Assembly: GCA_038212075.1 (NCBI GenBank)
Contig: JBBQUV010000003.1
Span: 20,036 to 84,035, forward strand
Reading direction: 5' to 3'
Origin: Minisyncoccia bacterium
GTDB lineage: Bacteria > Patescibacteriota > Minisyncoccia > Phycocordibacterales > Phycocordibacteraceae
DNA: 64,000 nucleotides
The translations under genes and the position numbers were made by a program. Shown one piece after another: positions 1,425 to 20,742 of the stretch. The notes below the pieces were generated by a model. It had not been told where the DNA came from and ran no database searches. It saw nothing but the letters and a program-made list of their open reading frames with translations. How positions within the stretch are numbered: position 1 is the first letter of the stretch; the number at the start of each line of letters is the position of its first letter.

Positions 1425-1785
1425 GTGGAGAGAATCACAGGTTCGTTGACAATCGAATACGCATAGGTAAATCAAAGCTCCGATGTAACAGTCGGAGTGT
1501 AGAAAGTGCAAATTCATCTAGCGATGTTAGAAAGTTAATTGTGGTGTTCAGATCTCCGCACAGGAGACGTGAAGGGTGTATGGTGGATGCCTAGGCTTGT
1601 GACAGCGATGAAGGACGCTACTAATCAGCGATAGCTCCGGGGAGGCGATTTGTAGCCTTTGATCCGGAGGTCTCCGAATGGGGAAACCCGTCTGCGTATG
1701 CGGACATCTTCCGAGTAATGTCGGAAGGAGCGAACCTCGGGAAGTGAAACATCTCAGTACCGAGAGGAAAAGAAAACAAGAGCGA

Positions 1786-1840
1786 GCCGTGTTCTGTCTG
1801 CGCATTATGTTTGTGCAGATAGAACACGTCTCTCGCGATT
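1786..1840 (+). other. About 45-nt hairpin expansion segment in 23S domain I relative to E. coli
   Basis: Extra cgtgttctgtctgcgca...tgcagatagaacacg hairpin between GAAAAGAAA and GATTCCCC. Confidence 0.5.
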
Positions 1841-2103
1841 CCCCTAATAGCGGCGAGCGAAAAGGGAAAAGCCCAAACCTCTGCTTTCGGGCAGGGGGGT
1901 TGTAAGGCAGGAGCGCACAATTTATTGTGAAAGAGTTACCAATTGTCTTTATAGTGGAAGCTGCTGGGAAGCAGCGCCCCAGAGGGTAATGGCCCCGTAC
2001 ACGAAATAAATGACAACTCTTGCTCCTGTTCTTGAGTAGCTCGAGACACGAATAGCTCGAGTGAATCTGCCGGAACTAACCGGTAAGGCTAAATATGTCA
2101 CAG

Positions 2104-2143
<40 letters not shown>

Positions 2144-3595
2144 CACCCCGAGAGGGGAGTGAAATAGTACTGAAACCATACACTTACAAAGGGTGGGAGC
2201 GGGTCGAGAGCAATCTTGGCACCGTGACCGCGTGCCTATTGAAGAATGAGCCGGCGAGTGTGTATATGTTGCGTAGCTAAATCCTTTGACGGATGCAGCT
2301 GTAGGGAAACCGAGTGTGAATAGCGCGTAAGTAGCATATATACGACACGAAGCCAGATGAGCTTGCCATGAGCAGGGTGAAGTTTCTCGAAAGAGGAATG
2401 GAGGCCCGAACCCGTAGGCTGTGCAACACCTTGGGATGACTTGTGGCAAGGAGTGAAAAGCTAATCGAATCTGGTAATAGCTTGTTCTCTCCGAAACAGC
2501 TTTTGGGTTGGCGTCGCGTGTTCCCTCTGGGGGTAGAGCACTGGAAGGGTTCAACAGGGAGAAATCTCGTGAACCCTATCAACCTCCGAATACCAGAGAT
2601 CAAGAGCGCGGCAGTTAGAACGTGGGGGCGAAGCTCCACGGATCGAAAGGGGAAGAGCCCTGATCGCCAGTTAAGGCCCCTAAATCGACGCTCAGTATAT
2701 CCACAAGGAAGTGGGAATCCTTTGACAATGAGGATGTTGGCTTAGAAGCAGCCACCATTTAAAGAAAGCGTAACAGCTCACTCATCGAGGGTTCCTGCGC
2801 CGAAGATGATCGGGATTAAGCGTCGTGCCGAAACTGCGGGTGTACATCTTTTTCGAAAGATGTACGCGGTAGGAGAGCGTTCCATTCGCGCTGAAGCTAA
2901 AGGGGTGACCCATAGTGGAGCGTATGGAAGTGAGGATGCCGGTACAAGTAACCACAATGCGGGTGAGAACCCCGCACATCAAAAGACCAAGGATTCCTCG
3001 GCCATGGTAATCATCCGAGGGTTAGTCGGGCCTAAGAGGATGGCGAAAGCCGCACTCGATGGACACAAGGTTAATATTCCTTGACCGCTACACATGCGAA
3101 GAAGTGACGGACTGCTGTAATTATTGCCCATTATTGGATTTGGGTTGGTGCCGTGAGGAGGTGTACTAGGAAAATCCGGTACGCACTACTCCAAGCGGAG
3201 CCGCAATTTCCTCCTACGGGGGGAGAAAGAATAGTGAGCGCGGTTCCAAGAAAACCTTCTACGCTTCAGTGTGCTAGCGCCCGTACCGTAAACCGACACA
3301 GGTGGTCAAGTCGAGTAGACTACGATGAACGAGTTAGAGGTCCTCAAGGAACTCGGCAAAAAAGCGGCCGTAAGTTAGCGATAAGGCCTGGCTCTCGCAA
3401 GAGAGCCCGCAGTGAATGTGTCCCTGCCAACTGTTTACCAAAAACACAGCTCCCTGCGAACTCGTAAGAGGATGTATAGGGGGTGACGCCTGACCAATGC
3501 CGGAAGGTCAACCACGGGTGGTACCCTACTTCGGTAGTGTGCTGGACTGTGTAAGCCCCGGTGAATGTCGGCGATAACTATAATCGTCCTAAGGT

Positions 3596-3801
3596 CCTGC
3601 GTGTGAGCAATCGCACGCAGGACGGATTGGGACGATTATAGGAGACCGTAAACAGTGTTGAGAAACGTGCGTCATTTAAAGCTACCTCGTTATACGGTAA
3701 CGTATAACAGATCCGCGGCTCACAAGAGAGGCCATACGCCGCGCGTCCTCGCTGTAAAAAGATGAGGATGAAGAAATGGTCCTACGTTAAAGGAATAGTA
3801 G
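3596..3801 (+). mobile_element. 206-nt insertion at the 23S site equivalent to E. coli 1917 (CCUAAGGU^AGCGAAAUUCC). Possible small or degenerate group I intron
   Basis: Exon sequence is contiguous if 3596-3801 is removed. The 5' exon ends in T and the insert ends in G. Too short for a canonical group I core, and R/S elements are not clear. Confidence 0.45.
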
Positions 3802-4130
3802 AGCGCAATTCCTTGTCGGGTAAATTCCGACGTGCACGAATGGCGTAATGAGTGGGGAACTGTCTCGAGGACTCGCTCGGTGAAAATGCATTTCCGGTGA
3901 AGATGCCGGATACCTGTAGTTAGACGAAAAGACCCCAGGAGCTTTACTGCAGCTTCGTATTGGGGCTGCGTGCTTTATGCGTAGCATAGTGGGGAGAGGT
4001 TGAGATATCGGTTTCGGCTGATGTGGACTCGAAATATGAAATACCCATCTTAAAGTGTGCAGTTTCTAACCGATCGGACGAACCCGATCGGGACCGTGCG
4101 TGGCAGGCAGTTTTGGTGGGGCGCTATCCT

Positions 4131-4653
4131 TCGGCCAATGAATACTGGATTCGTTGGTCGAAGCCATGGCGCCCCGCGAAGCCTCAATAAGCTTCAAAAC
4201 AAATAAATAAGGGGGCGCGGCAGCAATGCTGCGGGCAAGTTGGGAATATGCTGGAAACACCGGTGGATGGTATGCTACTTGTATTAGCAAGTGACAATGT
4301 ATACCTGCGGTCAATCAGCAGGGAAGTTAATTAAACATGGAACAAATACCACAGGAGCCCAAAAAAGAAGGTAAAGAAGAACTTATGCACAGCCTCGATA
4401 TCTCTCTAGAGCTTATTGAGGACCATATGTCGGGAGCTCGAATGTGCGCAGCCAGTACTTCTAGCGAAGTTGCAAGCCATGAGGAAGAGTATATGGACAA
4501 GGCTTGGAAAGAAATTCGAGAGGCCAGAAAACTTCTTGAACAACTAAAAGACGGTTCCTAATGAATTAACCCCCTCAGAGACTACAAACCAACCATCCTG
4601 AAAAGGATGAATGTATAGTCCGCACTGCATGGCGACATGCAGATAACACAAGG
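4131..4653 (+). mobile_element. Group I intron in 23S rRNA, next to the P-loop (about E. coli 2262), 523 nt, containing a small ORF
   Basis: Exons align across GGGGCGCTATCCT | CCTAAAAAGTAACGGAGGAG. R-like tcagagactaca and S-like gaatgtatagtcc elements (P7) present. P/Q-like gctgcgggcaag / cctgcggtcaatcagcag. 5' exon ends in U and intron ends in G. Confidence 0.75.
4337..4561 (+). CDS. Intron-internal ORF (74 aa, acidic, no recognisable homing-endonuclease motif)
   Basis: ORF lies in a peripheral loop of the group I intron, between the Q and R elements. No LAGLIDADG/GIY-YIG/HNH motifs. Confidence 0.25.
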   Translation: MEQIPQEPKKEGKEELMHSLDISLELIEDHMSGARMCAASTSSEVASHEEEYMDKAWKEIREARKLLEQLKDGS

Positions 4654-4987
4654 CCTAAAAAGTAACGGAGGAGTCTATTAAGGTTCTCTAGTCGCGAATG
4701 GAAACCGTGACGATAGTGTAATGGCATAAGAGAGCTTAACTGCGAGGCGTACATGCCAAGCAGATGCGAAAGCAGAGCATAGTGAACCGATGGTCCGCCT
4801 TAGATGCGGCCAGAGATTAACGGATATAAGTTACCCTGGGGATAACAGGCTAGTTCCGCCCAAGCGTCCTTAGCGACGGCGGAGTTCGGCACCTCGATGT
4901 CGGCTCAACATAGCGCGGGGCTGGAGAAGGTCCCAAGCGTTTGGCTGTTCGCCAATTAAAATGTTACGTGAGCTGGGTTCAGACCGT

Positions 4988-5351
4988 TCAGTTGCTGAAA
5001 AGTATCGGCACTTGGACCGTCTGAACCCCTTCGAAGAAGTTATCAAGTCAAAAAGGTTTTTTCGTCTAAGCAAAAGAATAGAACCAACAAATATCACGGC
5101 GGTCTTGCATAGGAATATGCAAGAATCAAATCAACTGATATCGGTGAAATCCTGTAAAGGACAACACCGAGGGAAGAGGGCTTTAGCGACTCGCCAAACC
5201 AGAGAAGAAAGGTTTGGCTCGCTTGCATAAGTGTTCGCAAATCTTGCCTGAAGGCAAAATTTGCTCCCTTACCCGTAGAGACTGAACGTTGAACAGCGAG
5301 AACCGCTGAAGTTACAGTCCGATCCCCGCAGTAATGTGGGAAAACATGGTG
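4988..5351 (+). mobile_element. Group I intron in 23S rRNA at the site equivalent to E. coli about 2593 (AGAACGU^CGUGAGACAG), 364 nt
   Basis: Exons align across GGGTTCAGACCGT | CGTGAGACAGGTTGGTC. R-like gtagagactgaa and S-like agttacagtcc. 5' exon ends in U and intron ends in G. Confidence 0.7.
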
Positions 5352-5772
5352 CGTGAGACAGGTTGGTCTCCTATCTACTACAGGCGTTGATTATTGAGGA
5401 GGGTCGTCCCTAGTACGAGAGGACCGGGATGAACTGACCTCTGGTCTACCAGTTGTCCTGCCAAGGGCATTGCTGGGTAGCTATGTCGGGTTCCGATAAC
5501 CGCTGAAAGCATATAAGCGGGAAACGGGCTCCAAGATCAGTAATCGTTATGAGACACCTTGCAGATTACAAGGTTGATAGGCTTTAAGTGAAAGTGCCGT
5601 AAGGTATTGAGCTGAGAAGTACTAATATGTCCAGTTCTCTTGTGCGGAACTCTGGGTGCCACAAAGCGCTATGAGTTTGCACTTGCTACGATTTTGAATT
5701 ACTTATGCGTATTCGGTTGTTAACGATACCAAGACATTGGTCCGTTGGAATCGAATTGTTTATTGAAAGTTT

Positions 5773-5887
5773 AGTTCTGGTGGTTTGGCGGCGGGGTCAT
5801 ACCCGTTCTCATTCCGAACACGGCAGTCAAGCCCGCTAGCGTCGATGGTACTTCTAACGAGGGAGAGTAGATAGCCGCCAGAACTAA
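5773..5887 (+). rRNA. rrf: 5S rRNA
   Basis: ...CCGAACACGGCAGTCAAGCCCGCTAGCGTCGATGGTA...GAGAGTAG... with helix I pairing agttctgg / ccagaact. Confidence 0.85.
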
Positions 5888-6756: not shown

Positions 6757-7886
6757 CCGAAGCCATACAGACATTTTCGTGGCGCTCATTGTTTGCTGAA
6801 TGGCCACTGTATGTCCTCGGGCTTGCTCTCGCTTCGCTCGGACTTCTTACCATGCATACGTTTGGAGCAAATTCACTTGCTCCACGCCAAATGGTATGGA
6901 TTCTTGTCGGCACCGTCGTATTTTTCTCTCTCTCCATTCTCGATATGCGGTTTATTCGTCGCACGCAAGTTATTCTTGCGGGATATGTAGGCGTCACCGT
7001 ACTTCTTGCACTGCTTCTTGTTGTAGTGCACCCAGTGATGGGTGCAAAGAGCTGGTTTTCATTAGGGCTTTTTTCTTTTCAACCAACTGACCCTACGAAG
7101 CTGGCGCTTATCGCCCTTCTTGCAAAATACTTTTCACGGCGCTACATAGAAATAGCGAACATTCGCCACATCGTGGTGTCTGGCCTCTATGCGGCGGCAC
7201 CGATGGTGCTCGTACTTCTTCAGCCAGATCTTGGCACTGCCGCGATTCTTGGCTCCATATGGTTTGGCATGGTGCTGGTTTCCGGTATCCCAAAGCGCCA
7301 TTTGGTCGTGGTGATTTTACTTGGCATTGTTGCCGCGACCGCGCTTTGGTTTGGTGGGCTACATGATTACCAGCGCCAACGTATTCTGGCATTCGTGAAC
7401 CCTGCGGCTGATATTCACGGTTCGGGATATAACGCGTATCAAGCAACCATCGCCGTTGGTTCAGGGCAGTGGCTTGGGAAGGGAATAGGGTACGGCACAC
7501 AATCAAAACTGCGCTTTTTGCCGCAGTACGAAACCGACTTTATTTTTGCGGCGTATGCGGAAGAGTGGGGATTTATTGGTGTCATTTTTGCGCTTCTTTT
7601 ATACGCGTTACTCTTTGCACGATTGATTGAAATTGCGCGACGCTCCGCCACAAACTTTGATGCGTTCTTTACTATCGGTGTATTGATTCTCTTAGCATCT
7701 CACGTTGCTATTCATGCCGGCATTAATGTGGGACTTTTGCCCGTAACCGGTACCACCATTCCGTTTATGAGCTACGGCGGCTCGCACATTGTGATGGAGT
7801 TTGGCGCGCTTGGTATTGTTGCATCTCTTGCAAAGTACGGCAGAAGTGCCCCGCGGGAACGAATTATTCAAGAATACGTCGGCTAG
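6753..7886 (+). CDS. SEDS-family peptidoglycan glycosyltransferase (FtsW/RodA)
   Basis: 10 TM topology and the conserved C-terminal ...PVTGTTIPFMSYGGSHIV... motif of FtsW/RodA/SpoVE. Confidence 0.85.
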   Translation: MTEAIQTFSWRSLFAEWPLYVLGLALASLGLLTMHTFGANSLAPRQMVWILVGTVVFFSLSILDMRFIRRTQVILAGYVGVTVLLALLLVVVHPVMGAKSWFSLGLFSFQPTDPTKLALIALLAKYFSRRYIEIANIRHIVVSGLYAAAPMVLVLLQPDLGTAAILGSIWFGMVLVSGIPKRHLVVVILLGIVAATALWFGGLHDYQRQRILAFVNPAADIHGSGYNAYQATIAVGSGQWLGKGIGYGTQSKLRFLPQYETDFIFAAYAEEWGFIGVIFALLLYALLFARLIEIARRSATNFDAFFTIGVLILLASHVAIHAGINVGLLPVTGTTIPFMSYGGSHIVMEFGALGIVASLAKYGRSAPRERIIQEYVG

Positions 7887-9004
7887 TGTTTGTATTGTTC
7901 AAACGTTGCGTCGAGCATTTTGCCGAGCGAAAAGTTTTGCTCAACATATTTTTTTAGCGCGTTGCCTTTTTCAGCAAGGGTTTCAGCTGCACGCAAACAA
8001 GCATTCATTTTTTCTGCGAGCGCGTCCGCGTTTTCTGAAGGGAAAAGCATATCAGCTGGCGCATCACCCAGCGCTTCTTGTGCGCCGCCAAAATCGCTTG
8101 CAATCACTGGTACTCCAGCCGCCACTGCCTCGAGTACTACATAGCCAAGGGCTTCAGTTCGTGAGGGAAGCACAAACAAGTCAAACGCCTTCACGTATTT
8201 CCACGCGTCCGGCATAAATCCAAGGAAGTGAATTGAGGGTTCATTTACTGCTTGCTCAGTAAGAGTCTTTTTTTCTTGCCCATCGCCAAGCACCACCCAT
8301 GCGGCGTTTTTTGGTTGCACTTTTTTCCACGCCCTAATACCAATATCAATACCTTTGTTTGGGTGAAGCTCTGCGATAGTGCCAACCAAAAGTTCCGCAT
8401 CTTCAAGTGTTGGGTCAGTAGTGGCGAGCACGGCACGCGCCGACTCTTTTGAAAGATAGGGAAGTGTTCCAATGCCAAGATGCACAAGCACGACTTTGCC
8501 TGCTCTAAGGTGCCATCGTTCCGTTTGTTTCTTGATAAATCGCGAAACAGCGATGGTGACATCAGAAAGCATGACCGTTTTTCTCTGCAATACTTCAAAA
8601 AACTTTTTTGCTAGAAAAGATCTTGGTTCAGTAAACGCCCAACCGTGTGCCGTAAAAACAATGCGCGGTACATTGGCCGCTTTTGCGGCGAGTGCGCCAA
8701 CGTAACCAGCTTTAGAACTATTCAAATGCACGACATCGGGTTTGAGTTTTGTGAAAAGAGCGGTGAGCTCGCGTTTTGCCGCCAGCTCCTTGAAAAAAGA
8801 AATATCACGACCAAGACTGGCGATGGGGTAGGTGGGCACCTGAAGCGCTTCTACGCGTTCGGCAAGAATGCCGTGCTCGCCGTAGGCGAGCACGGGGGCG
8901 TATCCATAGGCTTTACTATGGCTTATAAGGTCAAAAACGTACTTCTGCGCCCCACCCCATGTGGCTTTGGTAATAACATAGACAACGGTCTTTTGGGGTT
9001 CCAT
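7883..9004 (-). CDS. Glycosyltransferase family 4
   Basis: GT-B fold GT4 signature (E...G.PV.ASD.GG..E in the C-terminal half), 373 aa. Confidence 0.8.
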   Translation of the reverse strand: MEPQKTVVYVITKATWGGAQKYVFDLISHSKAYGYAPVLAYGEHGILAERVEALQVPTYPIASLGRDISFFKELAAKRELTALFTKLKPDVVHLNSSKAGYVGALAAKAANVPRIVFTAHGWAFTEPRSFLAKKFFEVLQRKTVMLSDVTIAVSRFIKKQTERWHLRAGKVVLVHLGIGTLPYLSKESARAVLATTDPTLEDAELLVGTIAELHPNKGIDIGIRAWKKVQPKNAAWVVLGDGQEKKTLTEQAVNEPSIHFLGFMPDAWKYVKAFDLFVLPSRTEALGYVVLEAVAAGVPVIASDFGGAQEALGDAPADMLFPSENADALAEKMNACLRAAETLAEKGNALKKYVEQNFSLGKMLDATFEQYKH

Positions 9005-18183: not shown

Positions 18184-18200
18184 TTTTGTTCCGCCTATTC
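18184..18200 (+). promoter_or_regulatory. 5' strand of the 17-bp pre-16S processing stem
   Basis: ttttgttccgcctattc is the perfect complement of 19807-19823. Confidence 0.6.
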
Positions 18201-18206
18201 TTAATT

Positions 18207-19651
<1,445 letters not shown>

Positions 19652-19806
19652 TATCCGAATGGAATCGGTTCTCCCGAAAGGAGGACCAAGTCGAACGTGT
19701 CGCAAGACACGAGGGAGATAGCACTACGTCCCCAAACGTGTGCTCGGTAGCCCCATACGTCAGGGGCGCTGGAGTCGGAGCGCTCAATTGACGCTCTGAA
19801 TACGGC
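19652..19806 (+). other. 155-nt 3' trailer/extension of the 16S transcript enclosed by the processing stem
   Basis: Lies between GGATCA and the 3' stem strand. Contains AGGAGG but no CCTCC. Confidence 0.5.
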
Positions 19807-20651: not shown

Positions 20652-20670
20652 GTGTGTTGTGTGTTGTGTG
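20652..20670 (+). repeat. Short (GTGTT/GTG)n simple repeat spacer
   Basis: gtgtgttgtgtgttgtgtg. Confidence 0.6.
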
Positions 20671-20742
20671 CACGCTTAGCTCAGCTGGTAGAGCACTCGA
20701 CTGATACTCGAGCGGTCCTAGGTTCGACTCCTAGAGCGTGCA
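20670..20742 (+). tRNA. tRNA-Ile (anticodon GAT), 73 nt, no encoded CCA
   Basis: Hand-folded cloverleaf: acceptor gcacgct/agcgtgc, D arm gctc-agctggta-gagc, anticodon arm ctcga-ctGATac-tcgag, T arm ctagg-ttcgact-cctag. Confidence 0.85.

Follow-up and report, generated by a model that had tools for sequence, protein, structure and literature searches.

What is the 523-nt insert that interrupts the 23S rRNA gene of a Minisyncoccia bacterium directly beside the P-loop, and is the small open reading frame (ORF) inside it a gene? The locus lies on a 64,000-nt stretch of contig JBBQUV010000003.1 (assembly GCA_038212075.1, positions 20,036 to 84,035 of the forward strand), which we refer to as the window and number from its first base. 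A first-pass annotation, made from the letters and their translated ORFs, had proposed a group I intron at 4131-4653 with an embedded ORF of 74 amino acids (aa). On the strength of its sequence and covariation, the insert can be assigned securely as a group I intron in a 23S gene of the Patescibacteria (Candidate Phyla Radiation, CPR). The overall explanation that we hold with high confidence is an intron after E. coli position 2262 (L2262) that would follow the standard splicing route, with a putative clamp on the upstream exon in the P1 loop and a presumed passenger ORF in the P6 loop (L6).

Position and group I identity of the insert

The 23S rRNA gene occupies 1560-5645 of the window and is 4086 nt long, compared with the 2925 positions of the Rfam bacterial 23S model. 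In a MAFFT alignment with the E. coli 23S rRNA, whose numbering we calibrated on the P-loop, helix 69 and A2451 landmarks, a 523-nt insertion falls exactly at 4131-4653, after E. coli 2262. Counting from G2253 of the P-loop, this point is nine bases further 3', within the 5' strand of helix 81. The 5' exon terminates in ...GGGGCGCUAUCCU with U4130 as its last base, the insert terminates in ...ACACAAGG (AAGG) with G4653 as its last base, and the 3' exon opens with CCUAAAAAGUAACGGAGG; because the flanking bases differ, the boundaries are fixed and cannot slide. After removal of 4131-4653, the joined exons are identical to the uninterrupted GGTGGGGCGCTATCCTCCTAAAAAGTAACGGAGGAGTCTATTAAGG of the metagenome locus L059, the closest 23S relative among the fetched loci (90.2% identity over 663 nt). 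The uninterrupted junction is carried by L059 and 18 other loci, and intron-less alleles thus exist. L059 itself (7940-8600 and upstream) is without the L2262 intron and has an L1917 intron (GCGATAACTAT-AAGATGATTGTAGTT...; here and below a hyphen within a sequence marks the junction) that is absent from the window, so intron content differs between close relatives.

The elements of the insert and of its flanks are listed below in window coordinates.

4131-4653, + strand: group I intron at L2262, 523 nt, placed by Rfam, covariation, the empty site and the covariance model
4118-4130, + strand: end of the 5' exon; GGGGCGCUAU at 4118-4127 (exon -13 to -4, including P-loop G2251-G2253) is the target of the anti-exon element
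4128-4130, + strand: proposed 5' strand of P1, CCU, with the 5' splice site after U4130
4131-4143 / 4149-4161, + strand: hairpin 1, part of the elaborated P1 loop (L1), with loop ACUGG, starting at intron base 1; 99.2% paired, both-side changes in 10 of 12 pairs
4166-4175, + strand: anti-exon element AUGGCGCCCC, complementary 10/10 to exon 4118-4127
4178-4195, + strand: hairpin 2 (4178-4182 / 4191-4195, GAAGC / GCUUC), partly misaligned and weakly supported
4196-4210, + strand: A-rich linker 3' of hairpin 2
4210-4215, + strand: proposed internal guide AGGGGG, with the G-run at 4211-4215
4216-4222 / 4227-4233, + strand: P2 hairpin with a GCAA tetraloop
4239-4243 / 4589-4593, + strand: P3, GUUGG / CCAAC; 98% paired, 3 of 5 pairs compensatory
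4249-4254 / 4315-4320, + strand: P4, UGCUGG / UCAGCA; 96.7% paired, four compensatory pairs
4259-4262 / 4308-4311, + strand: P5; 100% paired, three compensatory pairs
4269-4274 / 4300-4305, + strand: P5a, read from the sequence and outside the covariation count
4277-4281 / 4288-4292, + strand: P5b, likewise read from the sequence and outside that count
4321-4323 / 4572-4574 (GGG / CCC) and 4326-4332 / 4564-4570 (GUUAAUU / AAUUAAC), + strand: P6, from Rfam and covariation
4337-4561, + strand: ORF of 74 codons in L6
4575-4594, + strand: J6/7 and the P7 5' strand (GACUA at 4580-4584), followed by the P3 3' strand at 4589-4593
4575-4586, + strand: P7 R strand UCAGAGACUACA, present
4595-4599 / 4604-4608, + strand: P8 hairpin, AUCCU / AGGAU with a GAAA loop; 92.5% paired
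4609-4621, + strand: J8/7 and the P7 3' strand (UAGUC at 4616-4620), invariant; S strand GAAUGUAUAGUCC
4625-4631 / 4636-4642, + strand: P9 hairpin with a GCGA (GNRA) loop; 100% paired, 5 of 7 pairs compensatory
4643-4653, + strand: 3' tail AUAACACAAGG, with conserved UAAC and G4653 as omega-G
4654-4671, + strand: start of the 3' exon, CCUAAAAAGUAACGGAGG, the loop and 3' strand of helix 81

The intron is without P7.1/P7.2 and without P5abc. In compact group I introns, P8 and P5 usually have the GNRA loops of P2 and P9 as their partners; at the P2 position each relative has a different hairpin, mostly with a GNRA cap.

To these elements the Rfam Intron_gpI model (RF00028), run on a 701-nt region, gave a match at 29.7 bits (E = 1.3e-5) over 4174-4642, which spans P2-P9, places P3, P4, P5, P6, P8 and P9, and opens a gap of 221 nt in L6. 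Relatives were found by a pattern, composed of the P7 3' strand and the 3' exon, that was scanned over one genome per prokaryotic species. The scan returned 16 loci, 15 of them with an insert at the identical point (13 loci together with L013 and L014); the hit in L008 is a chance match outside rRNA and was rejected. The L2262 family therefore has 16 members including the window intron, 251-527 nt long, and nearly all of the other hosts are Patescibacteria metagenome-assembled genomes (MAGs) labelled Paceibacterota, Parcubacteria, Saccharibacteria or Taylorbacteria, with one 3-kb contig labelled Aenigmatarchaeota. In all 16, U precedes the intron and G is its last base. L015 (JACPJX010000025.1, 3058 bp), whose intron is the closest to that of the window, belongs to a MAG with the label Candidatus Aenigmatarchaeota; misbinning of this contig is probable, since its flanking 23S exon aligns with that of the window at 81%.

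For covariation, we drew the structure on the window sequence and scored its pairs in a plain MAFFT alignment of ten family members (a second MAFFT alignment, A2, misaligned the subfamily of the window and was left out). Standard pairs fill 89.7% of the cells of the drawn structure, and sliding the 3' partners by 1-3 columns lowers this share to 36-42%. Both-side, compensatory changes are found in 41 of the 67 pairs, and none of 500 shuffles reached any of the five covariation measures. P3, P4, P5, P8 and P9 are each 92-100% paired with 2-5 compensatory pairs, and P7 is invariant. P3 alternates between GUUGG/CCAAC and UCAGC/GCUGA, and P4 between UCGG/CCGA and UGCUGG/UCAGCA. We also built a covariance model solely from the introns of eleven other genomes, with the window sequence excluded; it matches the window over 4512-4654 at 75.4 bits (E = 6e-17), its 3' half (P7, P3', P8, P9 and the tail) aligning cleanly. 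The window differs in its P4-P5 type and in the 230-nt length of its L6, and for this reason the 5' half of the model is pushed into the ORF.

Every sequence statement of the first-pass annotation is borne out by these results. The restored 23S exon that it had described is the intron-less sequence of L059; the P7 strands R and S and the P4 strands are present as it had quoted them; and the U at the end of the 5' exon and the G at the end of the intron, which it had pointed out, recur throughout the family. The P3-P7 core, whose failure to fold it had said would make the insert a retained expansion, is supported by covariation in the ten members, and its central proposal, a group I intron beside the P-loop, agrees with the compensatory changes of the P3-P9 core and with the exact excision relative to L059. 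The Intron_gpI search that it had suggested came out divided, with a clear E-value across P2-P9 and a bit score short of the cut-off.

That shortfall counts against the assignment: at the Rfam gathering threshold of 50 bits there is no Intron_gpI match to the insert. We attribute the low score to the 225-nt ORF in L6 and to the unusual 5' part. To be set on the same side, the classification is at the level of group I, without a subgroup, and splicing of 4131-4653 is something that we infer from the sequence.

The insert might instead be an intervening sequence (IVS) or expansion that is never spliced. The mature rRNA would then either keep it or, if RNase III excised it and the ends were not ligated, consist of 23S fragments. 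An IVS processed by RNase III takes the place of a hairpin tip (H9, H25 or H45), with a long stem formed between its two ends. The L2262 site interrupts a helical stem, that of helix 81 next to the P-loop, rather than the end of a hairpin. Nor do the two ends of the insert pair together: the 5' end forms pairs internally and with exon bases, and the 3' tail is unpaired. As the hairpin at the 5' junction pairs exon with intron, RNase III cutting would damage the exon. Sixteen lineages, moreover, keep a full group I core that covaries, together with an invariant P7 and a G as last base, which argues for an intron, and we regard an unspliced IVS as highly improbable, even though the 5' junction is within a very stable 27-bp hairpin and RNase III-type IVSs are known in bacterial 23S genes, probably including those of the CPR (Tsurumaki et al. 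2024, J Bacteriol, PMC11270868).

A proposed internal guide and exon clamp

The 5' part of the intron contains a decamer, RUGGCGCCYC (4166-4175 in the window), which is invariant in 16 of 16 introns and pairs 10/10 with exon positions -13 to -4, a strand of the P-loop. When 4112-4245 is folded alone, it forms one long hairpin across the splice site, with 12 bp between exon and anti-exon and a further 15 bp, 27 bp in total (minimum free energy -64.7 kcal/mol, z = -5.8). We read the decamer as a predicted exon clamp.

A second invariant element, a run of at least five G, is located directly 5' of P2 in all 16 family members. In the window, AGG-GGG is complementary to the ligated exon CCU-CCU, with a G-U pair at the cleavage site. 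The G-run is invariant while the neighbouring helices covary, as expected for the partner of an invariant exon. In a distant intron at the same site, L121, the sequence GGGGC stands opposite exon GCCU and its C pairs with the G at -4; this is the single compensatory case for the guide, in an intron with a P1 loop of 8 nt and no clamp. The window also contains an intron at L2593, in which CACG-GCGGUC (5095-5104), placed before its P2, is a contiguous 10-nt guide that complements 3' exon CGUG and 5' exon GACCGU with a G-U pair at the splice site. On these comparisons, we propose the G-run 4211-4215 as the canonical guide of the L2262 intron, with a short P1 and P10. Two other pairings were considered and dropped. 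A P1 between exon UAUCC and intron AGGAUA (bases 3-8) involves bases that covary with the 3' strand of hairpin 1 and is absent in the window; CCUCC/CCCC as a mimic of the ligated exon gave way to the fold, in which these bases pair with exon GGGG.

The mechanism that we put forward combines the standard group I pathway with the anatomy listed above. Once the P3-P9 core is folded, the G-run would act as the internal guide, with G4213-G4215 pairing to exon CCU 4128-4130 through a G4213-U4130 wobble to form P1, and an external guanosine would attack after U4130. A4210-G4212 would then align the 3' exon CCU 4654-4656 as P10, omega-G4653 would enter the P7 site, and ligation of the exons would restore helix 81. 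At the level of the sequence, the P1 loop is enlarged to ~80 nt and contains the covarying hairpin that starts at intron base 1 and the invariant decamer. The clamp may keep the upstream exon out of helix 80 and present the splice site; with the splice site buried in the 27-bp hairpin, local opening would be needed for P1 to form.

This part of the reading meets several objections. In the isolated fold, U4130 is opposite A4162, not G, and the bases of the splice site are within the clamp hairpin; across the family, the base opposite U(-1) in the clamp pairing is A in 13 introns and U in the other 3 of the 16. The proposed P1 has only 3-4 bp, and since the exon is invariant, no P1 covariation is possible inside the family. 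The G-run could instead pair with the CCCC/CCUCC of the intron itself (4171-4175). We infer that P1 and P10 on the G-run would coexist with the decamer clamp as a three-way junction.

The placement of U4130 opposite A4162 in the most stable local fold, a canonical P1 of at most 3-4 bp and the below-threshold Rfam score would also suit a decayed group I intron, which has lost self-splicing and depends on a host or intron-encoded protein, the locked 5' splice site being a symptom of the decay. The window, however, seems to have no second 23S gene, and this one must give a working ribosome; the core strands are invariant or cleanly covarying. In addition, the combination of clamp and guide recurs in the L2593 intron with a textbook 10-nt guide, which suggests a working design rather than decay. 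We consider decay unlikely and retain the splicing-competent intron as the preferred reading.

The 74-codon ORF in L6

The ORF at 4337-4561 starts five bases after the P6 5' strand, and only two bases lie between its stop codon and the P6 3' strand, so that it fills L6. The first-pass annotation had described it as a small acidic ORF in a peripheral loop, and this description holds, the loop being that of P6: the 74-aa product contains 14 E and 4 D against 7 K and 3 R, a net charge of about -8. Is it a gene? Codon tables were derived from 27 long ORFs of the window, and host genes were cut into 74-codon pieces for comparison. Read in frame, the ORF has a codon log-likelihood of 0.384 bits per codon; out of frame, the values are -0.45 and -1.01. 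Host-gene pieces score 0.416 +/- 0.144 and off-frame pieces -0.654 +/- 0.245, none of the latter as high as the ORF. GC at its codon positions 1-3 is 0.61/0.34/0.39, the host-gene pattern in which GC1 exceeds GC2 and GC3. An ORF of this length was found in 3 of 20000 composition-preserving shuffles of L6.

Other members of the family also have ORFs in this region, as listed here.

L015: ORF of 55 aa in L6
L017: ORF of 56 aa in L6
L016 (intron 6943-7469): ORF of 73 aa that starts in the P5 loop (L5) and reads through P4' and P6 into L6
L003: ORF of 84 aa in L6
L006 (intron 291-791, Parcubacteria MAG): hydrophobic ORF of 42 aa in L6, MRNLVNLCRGVLQDIGLFILFFIVGGVLVGVLSPVVSALITK, directly behind a strong AAGGAGG and followed by a GC-rich hairpin

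In the window, L015 and L017, about 90% of the P6 region is taken up by an ATG ORF on the sense strand, and in L016 the share is 70%; the lengths in L015 and L017 were reached in 11 of 5000 and 1 of 5000 shuffles, respectively. Because the ORF of L016 reads through the P4 3' strand and P6, coding sequence and ribozyme core overlap in that intron.

A homing endonuclease would be recognized by the catalytic motifs of its family or by a profile match, and would have at least about 150 aa. With 74 aa, the ORF matches none of the motifs or profiles of LAGLIDADG, GIY-YIG, HNH, His-Cys box and PD-(D/E)XK enzymes. Searches of Pfam, NCBIfam and PADLOC returned no match (E up to 1-10), and PHROGs gave only families of unknown function at E >= 0.007, in agreement with the annotation, which had seen no homing-endonuclease motif. 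Judged by its sequence, the product is not an endonuclease. It does not match Pfam 23S_rRNA_IVP either, a family of four-helix bundles, whereas the model of the ORF product has two helices. In the single-sequence AlphaFold model these form a hairpin (pLDDT 81.8), and Foldseek against the PDB found only generic helical hairpins at E >= 0.78. The best match of the ORF in both sequence and structure is the DHp hairpin of FixL (PDB 4gcz, 8a7f), which is not significant at E = 0.23-0.78; in the alignment, gapless over 59 residues, His18 of the ORF falls on the phospho-accepting histidine. The predicted two-helix hairpin is the likeness to the DHp (HisKA) of FixL/YF1; unlike that domain, the ORF has no Pfam HisKA match and no catalytic domain, and its His is followed by Ser, not Glu/Asp. 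We treat the modelled DHp likeness as a lead only.

Some results speak against the ORF being a gene. No homologue beyond the ORF itself was found among 5.8 billion clustered proteins by a word-indexed search, and an exhaustive phmmer search of 1.84 billion representative proteins returned only the ORF itself and P0004, a low-complexity protein that has no BLASTP alignment to it and was rejected as a homologue. The six L6 ORFs show no significant pairwise similarity in BLASTP. The only Shine-Dalgarno-like bases upstream, AGGG, are weak and are within the P6 5' strand (4321..4332); translation and ribozyme folding would for this reason be mutually exclusive. The ORF of L015 is likewise without a homologue, and the L6 DNA of the window matches none of 136 fetched loci, including L015, whose flanking core is 81-95% identical.

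Such results would fit a chance frame in an unconstrained loop or a fading remnant of a homing endonuclease. The RNA of the loop is not unusually structured either way (z = -1.3), and cycles of endonuclease gain and decay are well known. A LAGLIDADG_2 gene is in fact present at L2262 in L121, the only intron at this site in a metagenome scan with the P4-P5-P4' motif, which returned mostly introns at other 23S sites. The L121 intron (2012-2936, 925 nt) has a 215-codon LAGLIDADG_2 ORF (E = 1.2e-41) without a stop inside the intron that runs into the 3' exon, and L2262 thus has a conventional homing history in at least one intron. It shares with the window intron the insertion point (GGGG and nine further nt before it, CCUAAA after it), the order guide-P2-P3-P4 and the P4 type (AUAUGCUGG ... 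AAUCAGCAGG), and it differs in the P7 sequence, in having the LAGLIDADG_2 ORF, and in its 8-nt P1 loop, which lacks hairpin 1 and the anti-exon decamer. The 3' exon of L121 reads GTAATGGAGG, not GTAACGGAGG. The endonuclease gene of L121 is, however, in the 3' part of the intron and not in L6, and the window ORF has no residual similarity to any endonuclease family. Also against this reading are the codon score within the host-gene range, the host-like GC1, the rarity of the length in shuffles and the loop-filling ORFs of L015 and L017. We lean against the ORF being no gene, while leaving that reading some weight.

Of the three options that the annotation had offered for the ORF, non-coding is thus the least likely, a degenerate endonuclease finds no supporting similarity, and a maturase role is unlikely because the product is acidic. 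As ORF-less relatives keep the same core, the ORF is most likely dispensable for splicing. We take it to be a putative passenger gene specific to the lineage.

Companion inserts and the place of the intron among known introns

The 23S gene of the window has three large insertions, 3596-3801 (206 nt), 4131-4653 (523 nt) and 4988-5351 (364 nt), after E. coli 1931, 2262 and 2593, respectively. L1931 and L2593 are classical intron sites, the latter of the I-CreI type. The insert at L2593 follows U2593, ends in G and has a full P3-P9 core; no Rfam group I match was obtained even at E up to 10, and the model from the L2262 introns matches it over 5129-5351 at 57.5 bits (E = 1.7e-12). The insert at L1931 also follows U and ends in G, with a P7-like GGCCAU/AUGGUC, a P8 and a GUAA-capped P2. 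It seems to be without a P4-P6 domain, because its P3 strands CGCGGC/GCCGCG are only about 10 nt from P7. Intron_gpI reaches only 14.9 bits on it (E = 0.14) and the covariance model of the L2262 introns gives no match; it may be a minimal or degenerate group I-like element. At both inserts, a long hairpin crosses the 5' splice site (3578-3641 and 4964-5039) and pairs 12-13 nt of the upstream exon with the intron; the Rfam labels on these hairpins, mir-2300 and mir-5892, are spurious microRNA-precursor matches. Since each of the three inserts opens with an exon-pairing hairpin, they share the clamp design. These two inserts, the P1 with its internal guide and the anti-exon element at 4166-4175 go beyond the first-pass annotation.

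Elsewhere in the gene, two extra segments of 54 nt are found at 1786-1839 and 1884-1937, near E. coli 233 and 277, and three short deletions relative to the E. coli 23S are present at E. coli 1705-1721, 1748-1756 and 2790-2805; they could be CPR features of rRNA expansion and reduction or alignment artefacts. The rRNA genes of the window are unlinked and in an unusual order: the 23S-5S pair (5S at 5776-5883) is followed by about 12 kb of protein-coding ORFs, then by the 16S gene (18200-19659) and a tRNA (20670-20742).

Bacterial 23S group I introns are known at L1917, L1931, L1951 and L2593, in Thermotoga, Coxiella, Simkania and cyanobacteria. They resemble the window intron in being of the self-splicing type, in the peptidyl-transferase region, following U and ending in G, and are often linked to endonucleases. 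The window intron differs in its site (L2262, in helix 81), in having no endonuclease and in its elaborated P1 loop. Introns with a similar P4-P5 motif were found at L1917 and L1931 in the metagenome scan, and the L1917 examples have a plain P1 helix of 6-8 bp with a U-G wobble and no clamp.

Reports of introns in CPR rRNA already exist, and 4131-4653 is ordinary for its lineage in this respect. A survey of 348 CPR 23S genes found inserts in 82% of them, and 45% of the inserts match the Rfam group I model; the hot spots for group I introns (23IS6-14) are concentrated in the 3' part, and at 23IS9-11, 13 and 14 such introns had no bacterial precedent (Tsurumaki et al. 2024, PMC11270868). According to the same source, the ORFs annotated in the inserts are almost all LAGLIDADG or GIY-YIG, and inserts in CPR rRNA are removed from the transcripts, for which it cites Brown et al. 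2015. The window intron shares with that set the host group, the gene, the location in domain V and the 3' part, the presence of several inserts per gene and the existence of ORF-containing and ORF-less versions at one site. It differs in that its ORF belongs to no family and in the exon-pairing decamer of the P1 loop, which the survey does not describe. Position 2262 may be one of the numbered hot spots. Literature searches for L2262 or neighbouring site names gave nothing relevant. A clamp in the P1 loop that pairs with the P-loop may be unreported, as may the recurrence in L6 of small ORFs other than endonuclease genes.

A broader proposal, which we offer tentatively and consider rather doubtful, is that a structural variant of group I is represented by the Patescibacteria introns at L2262 together with the inserts that the window has at L2593 and L1931. 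In this variant, an expanded P1 loop with an invariant clamp on 10-13 nt of upstream exon, at L2262 the P-loop strand, would work together with a very short guide, either to control the folding of the rRNA while splicing proceeds or to lengthen the target recognized in reverse splicing. L6, highly transcribed and unconstrained, would have hosted small non-endonuclease genes repeatedly, and the ORF described here would perhaps encode a free-standing DHp-like hairpin.

For annotation, the 23S gene has to be read with its introns removed; otherwise rRNA phylogeny and length filters go wrong. Because the curated threshold misses the L2262 intron and a permissive E-value misses the L2593 intron, published counts of CPR rRNA group I introns that are based on Rfam are likely underestimates. 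Finally, 16 sequences at one site, with and without ORFs, form a clean comparative set, with which one can examine how an intron deals with an exon that folds strongly on itself, such as the P-loop hairpin, and what role the small ORFs have.

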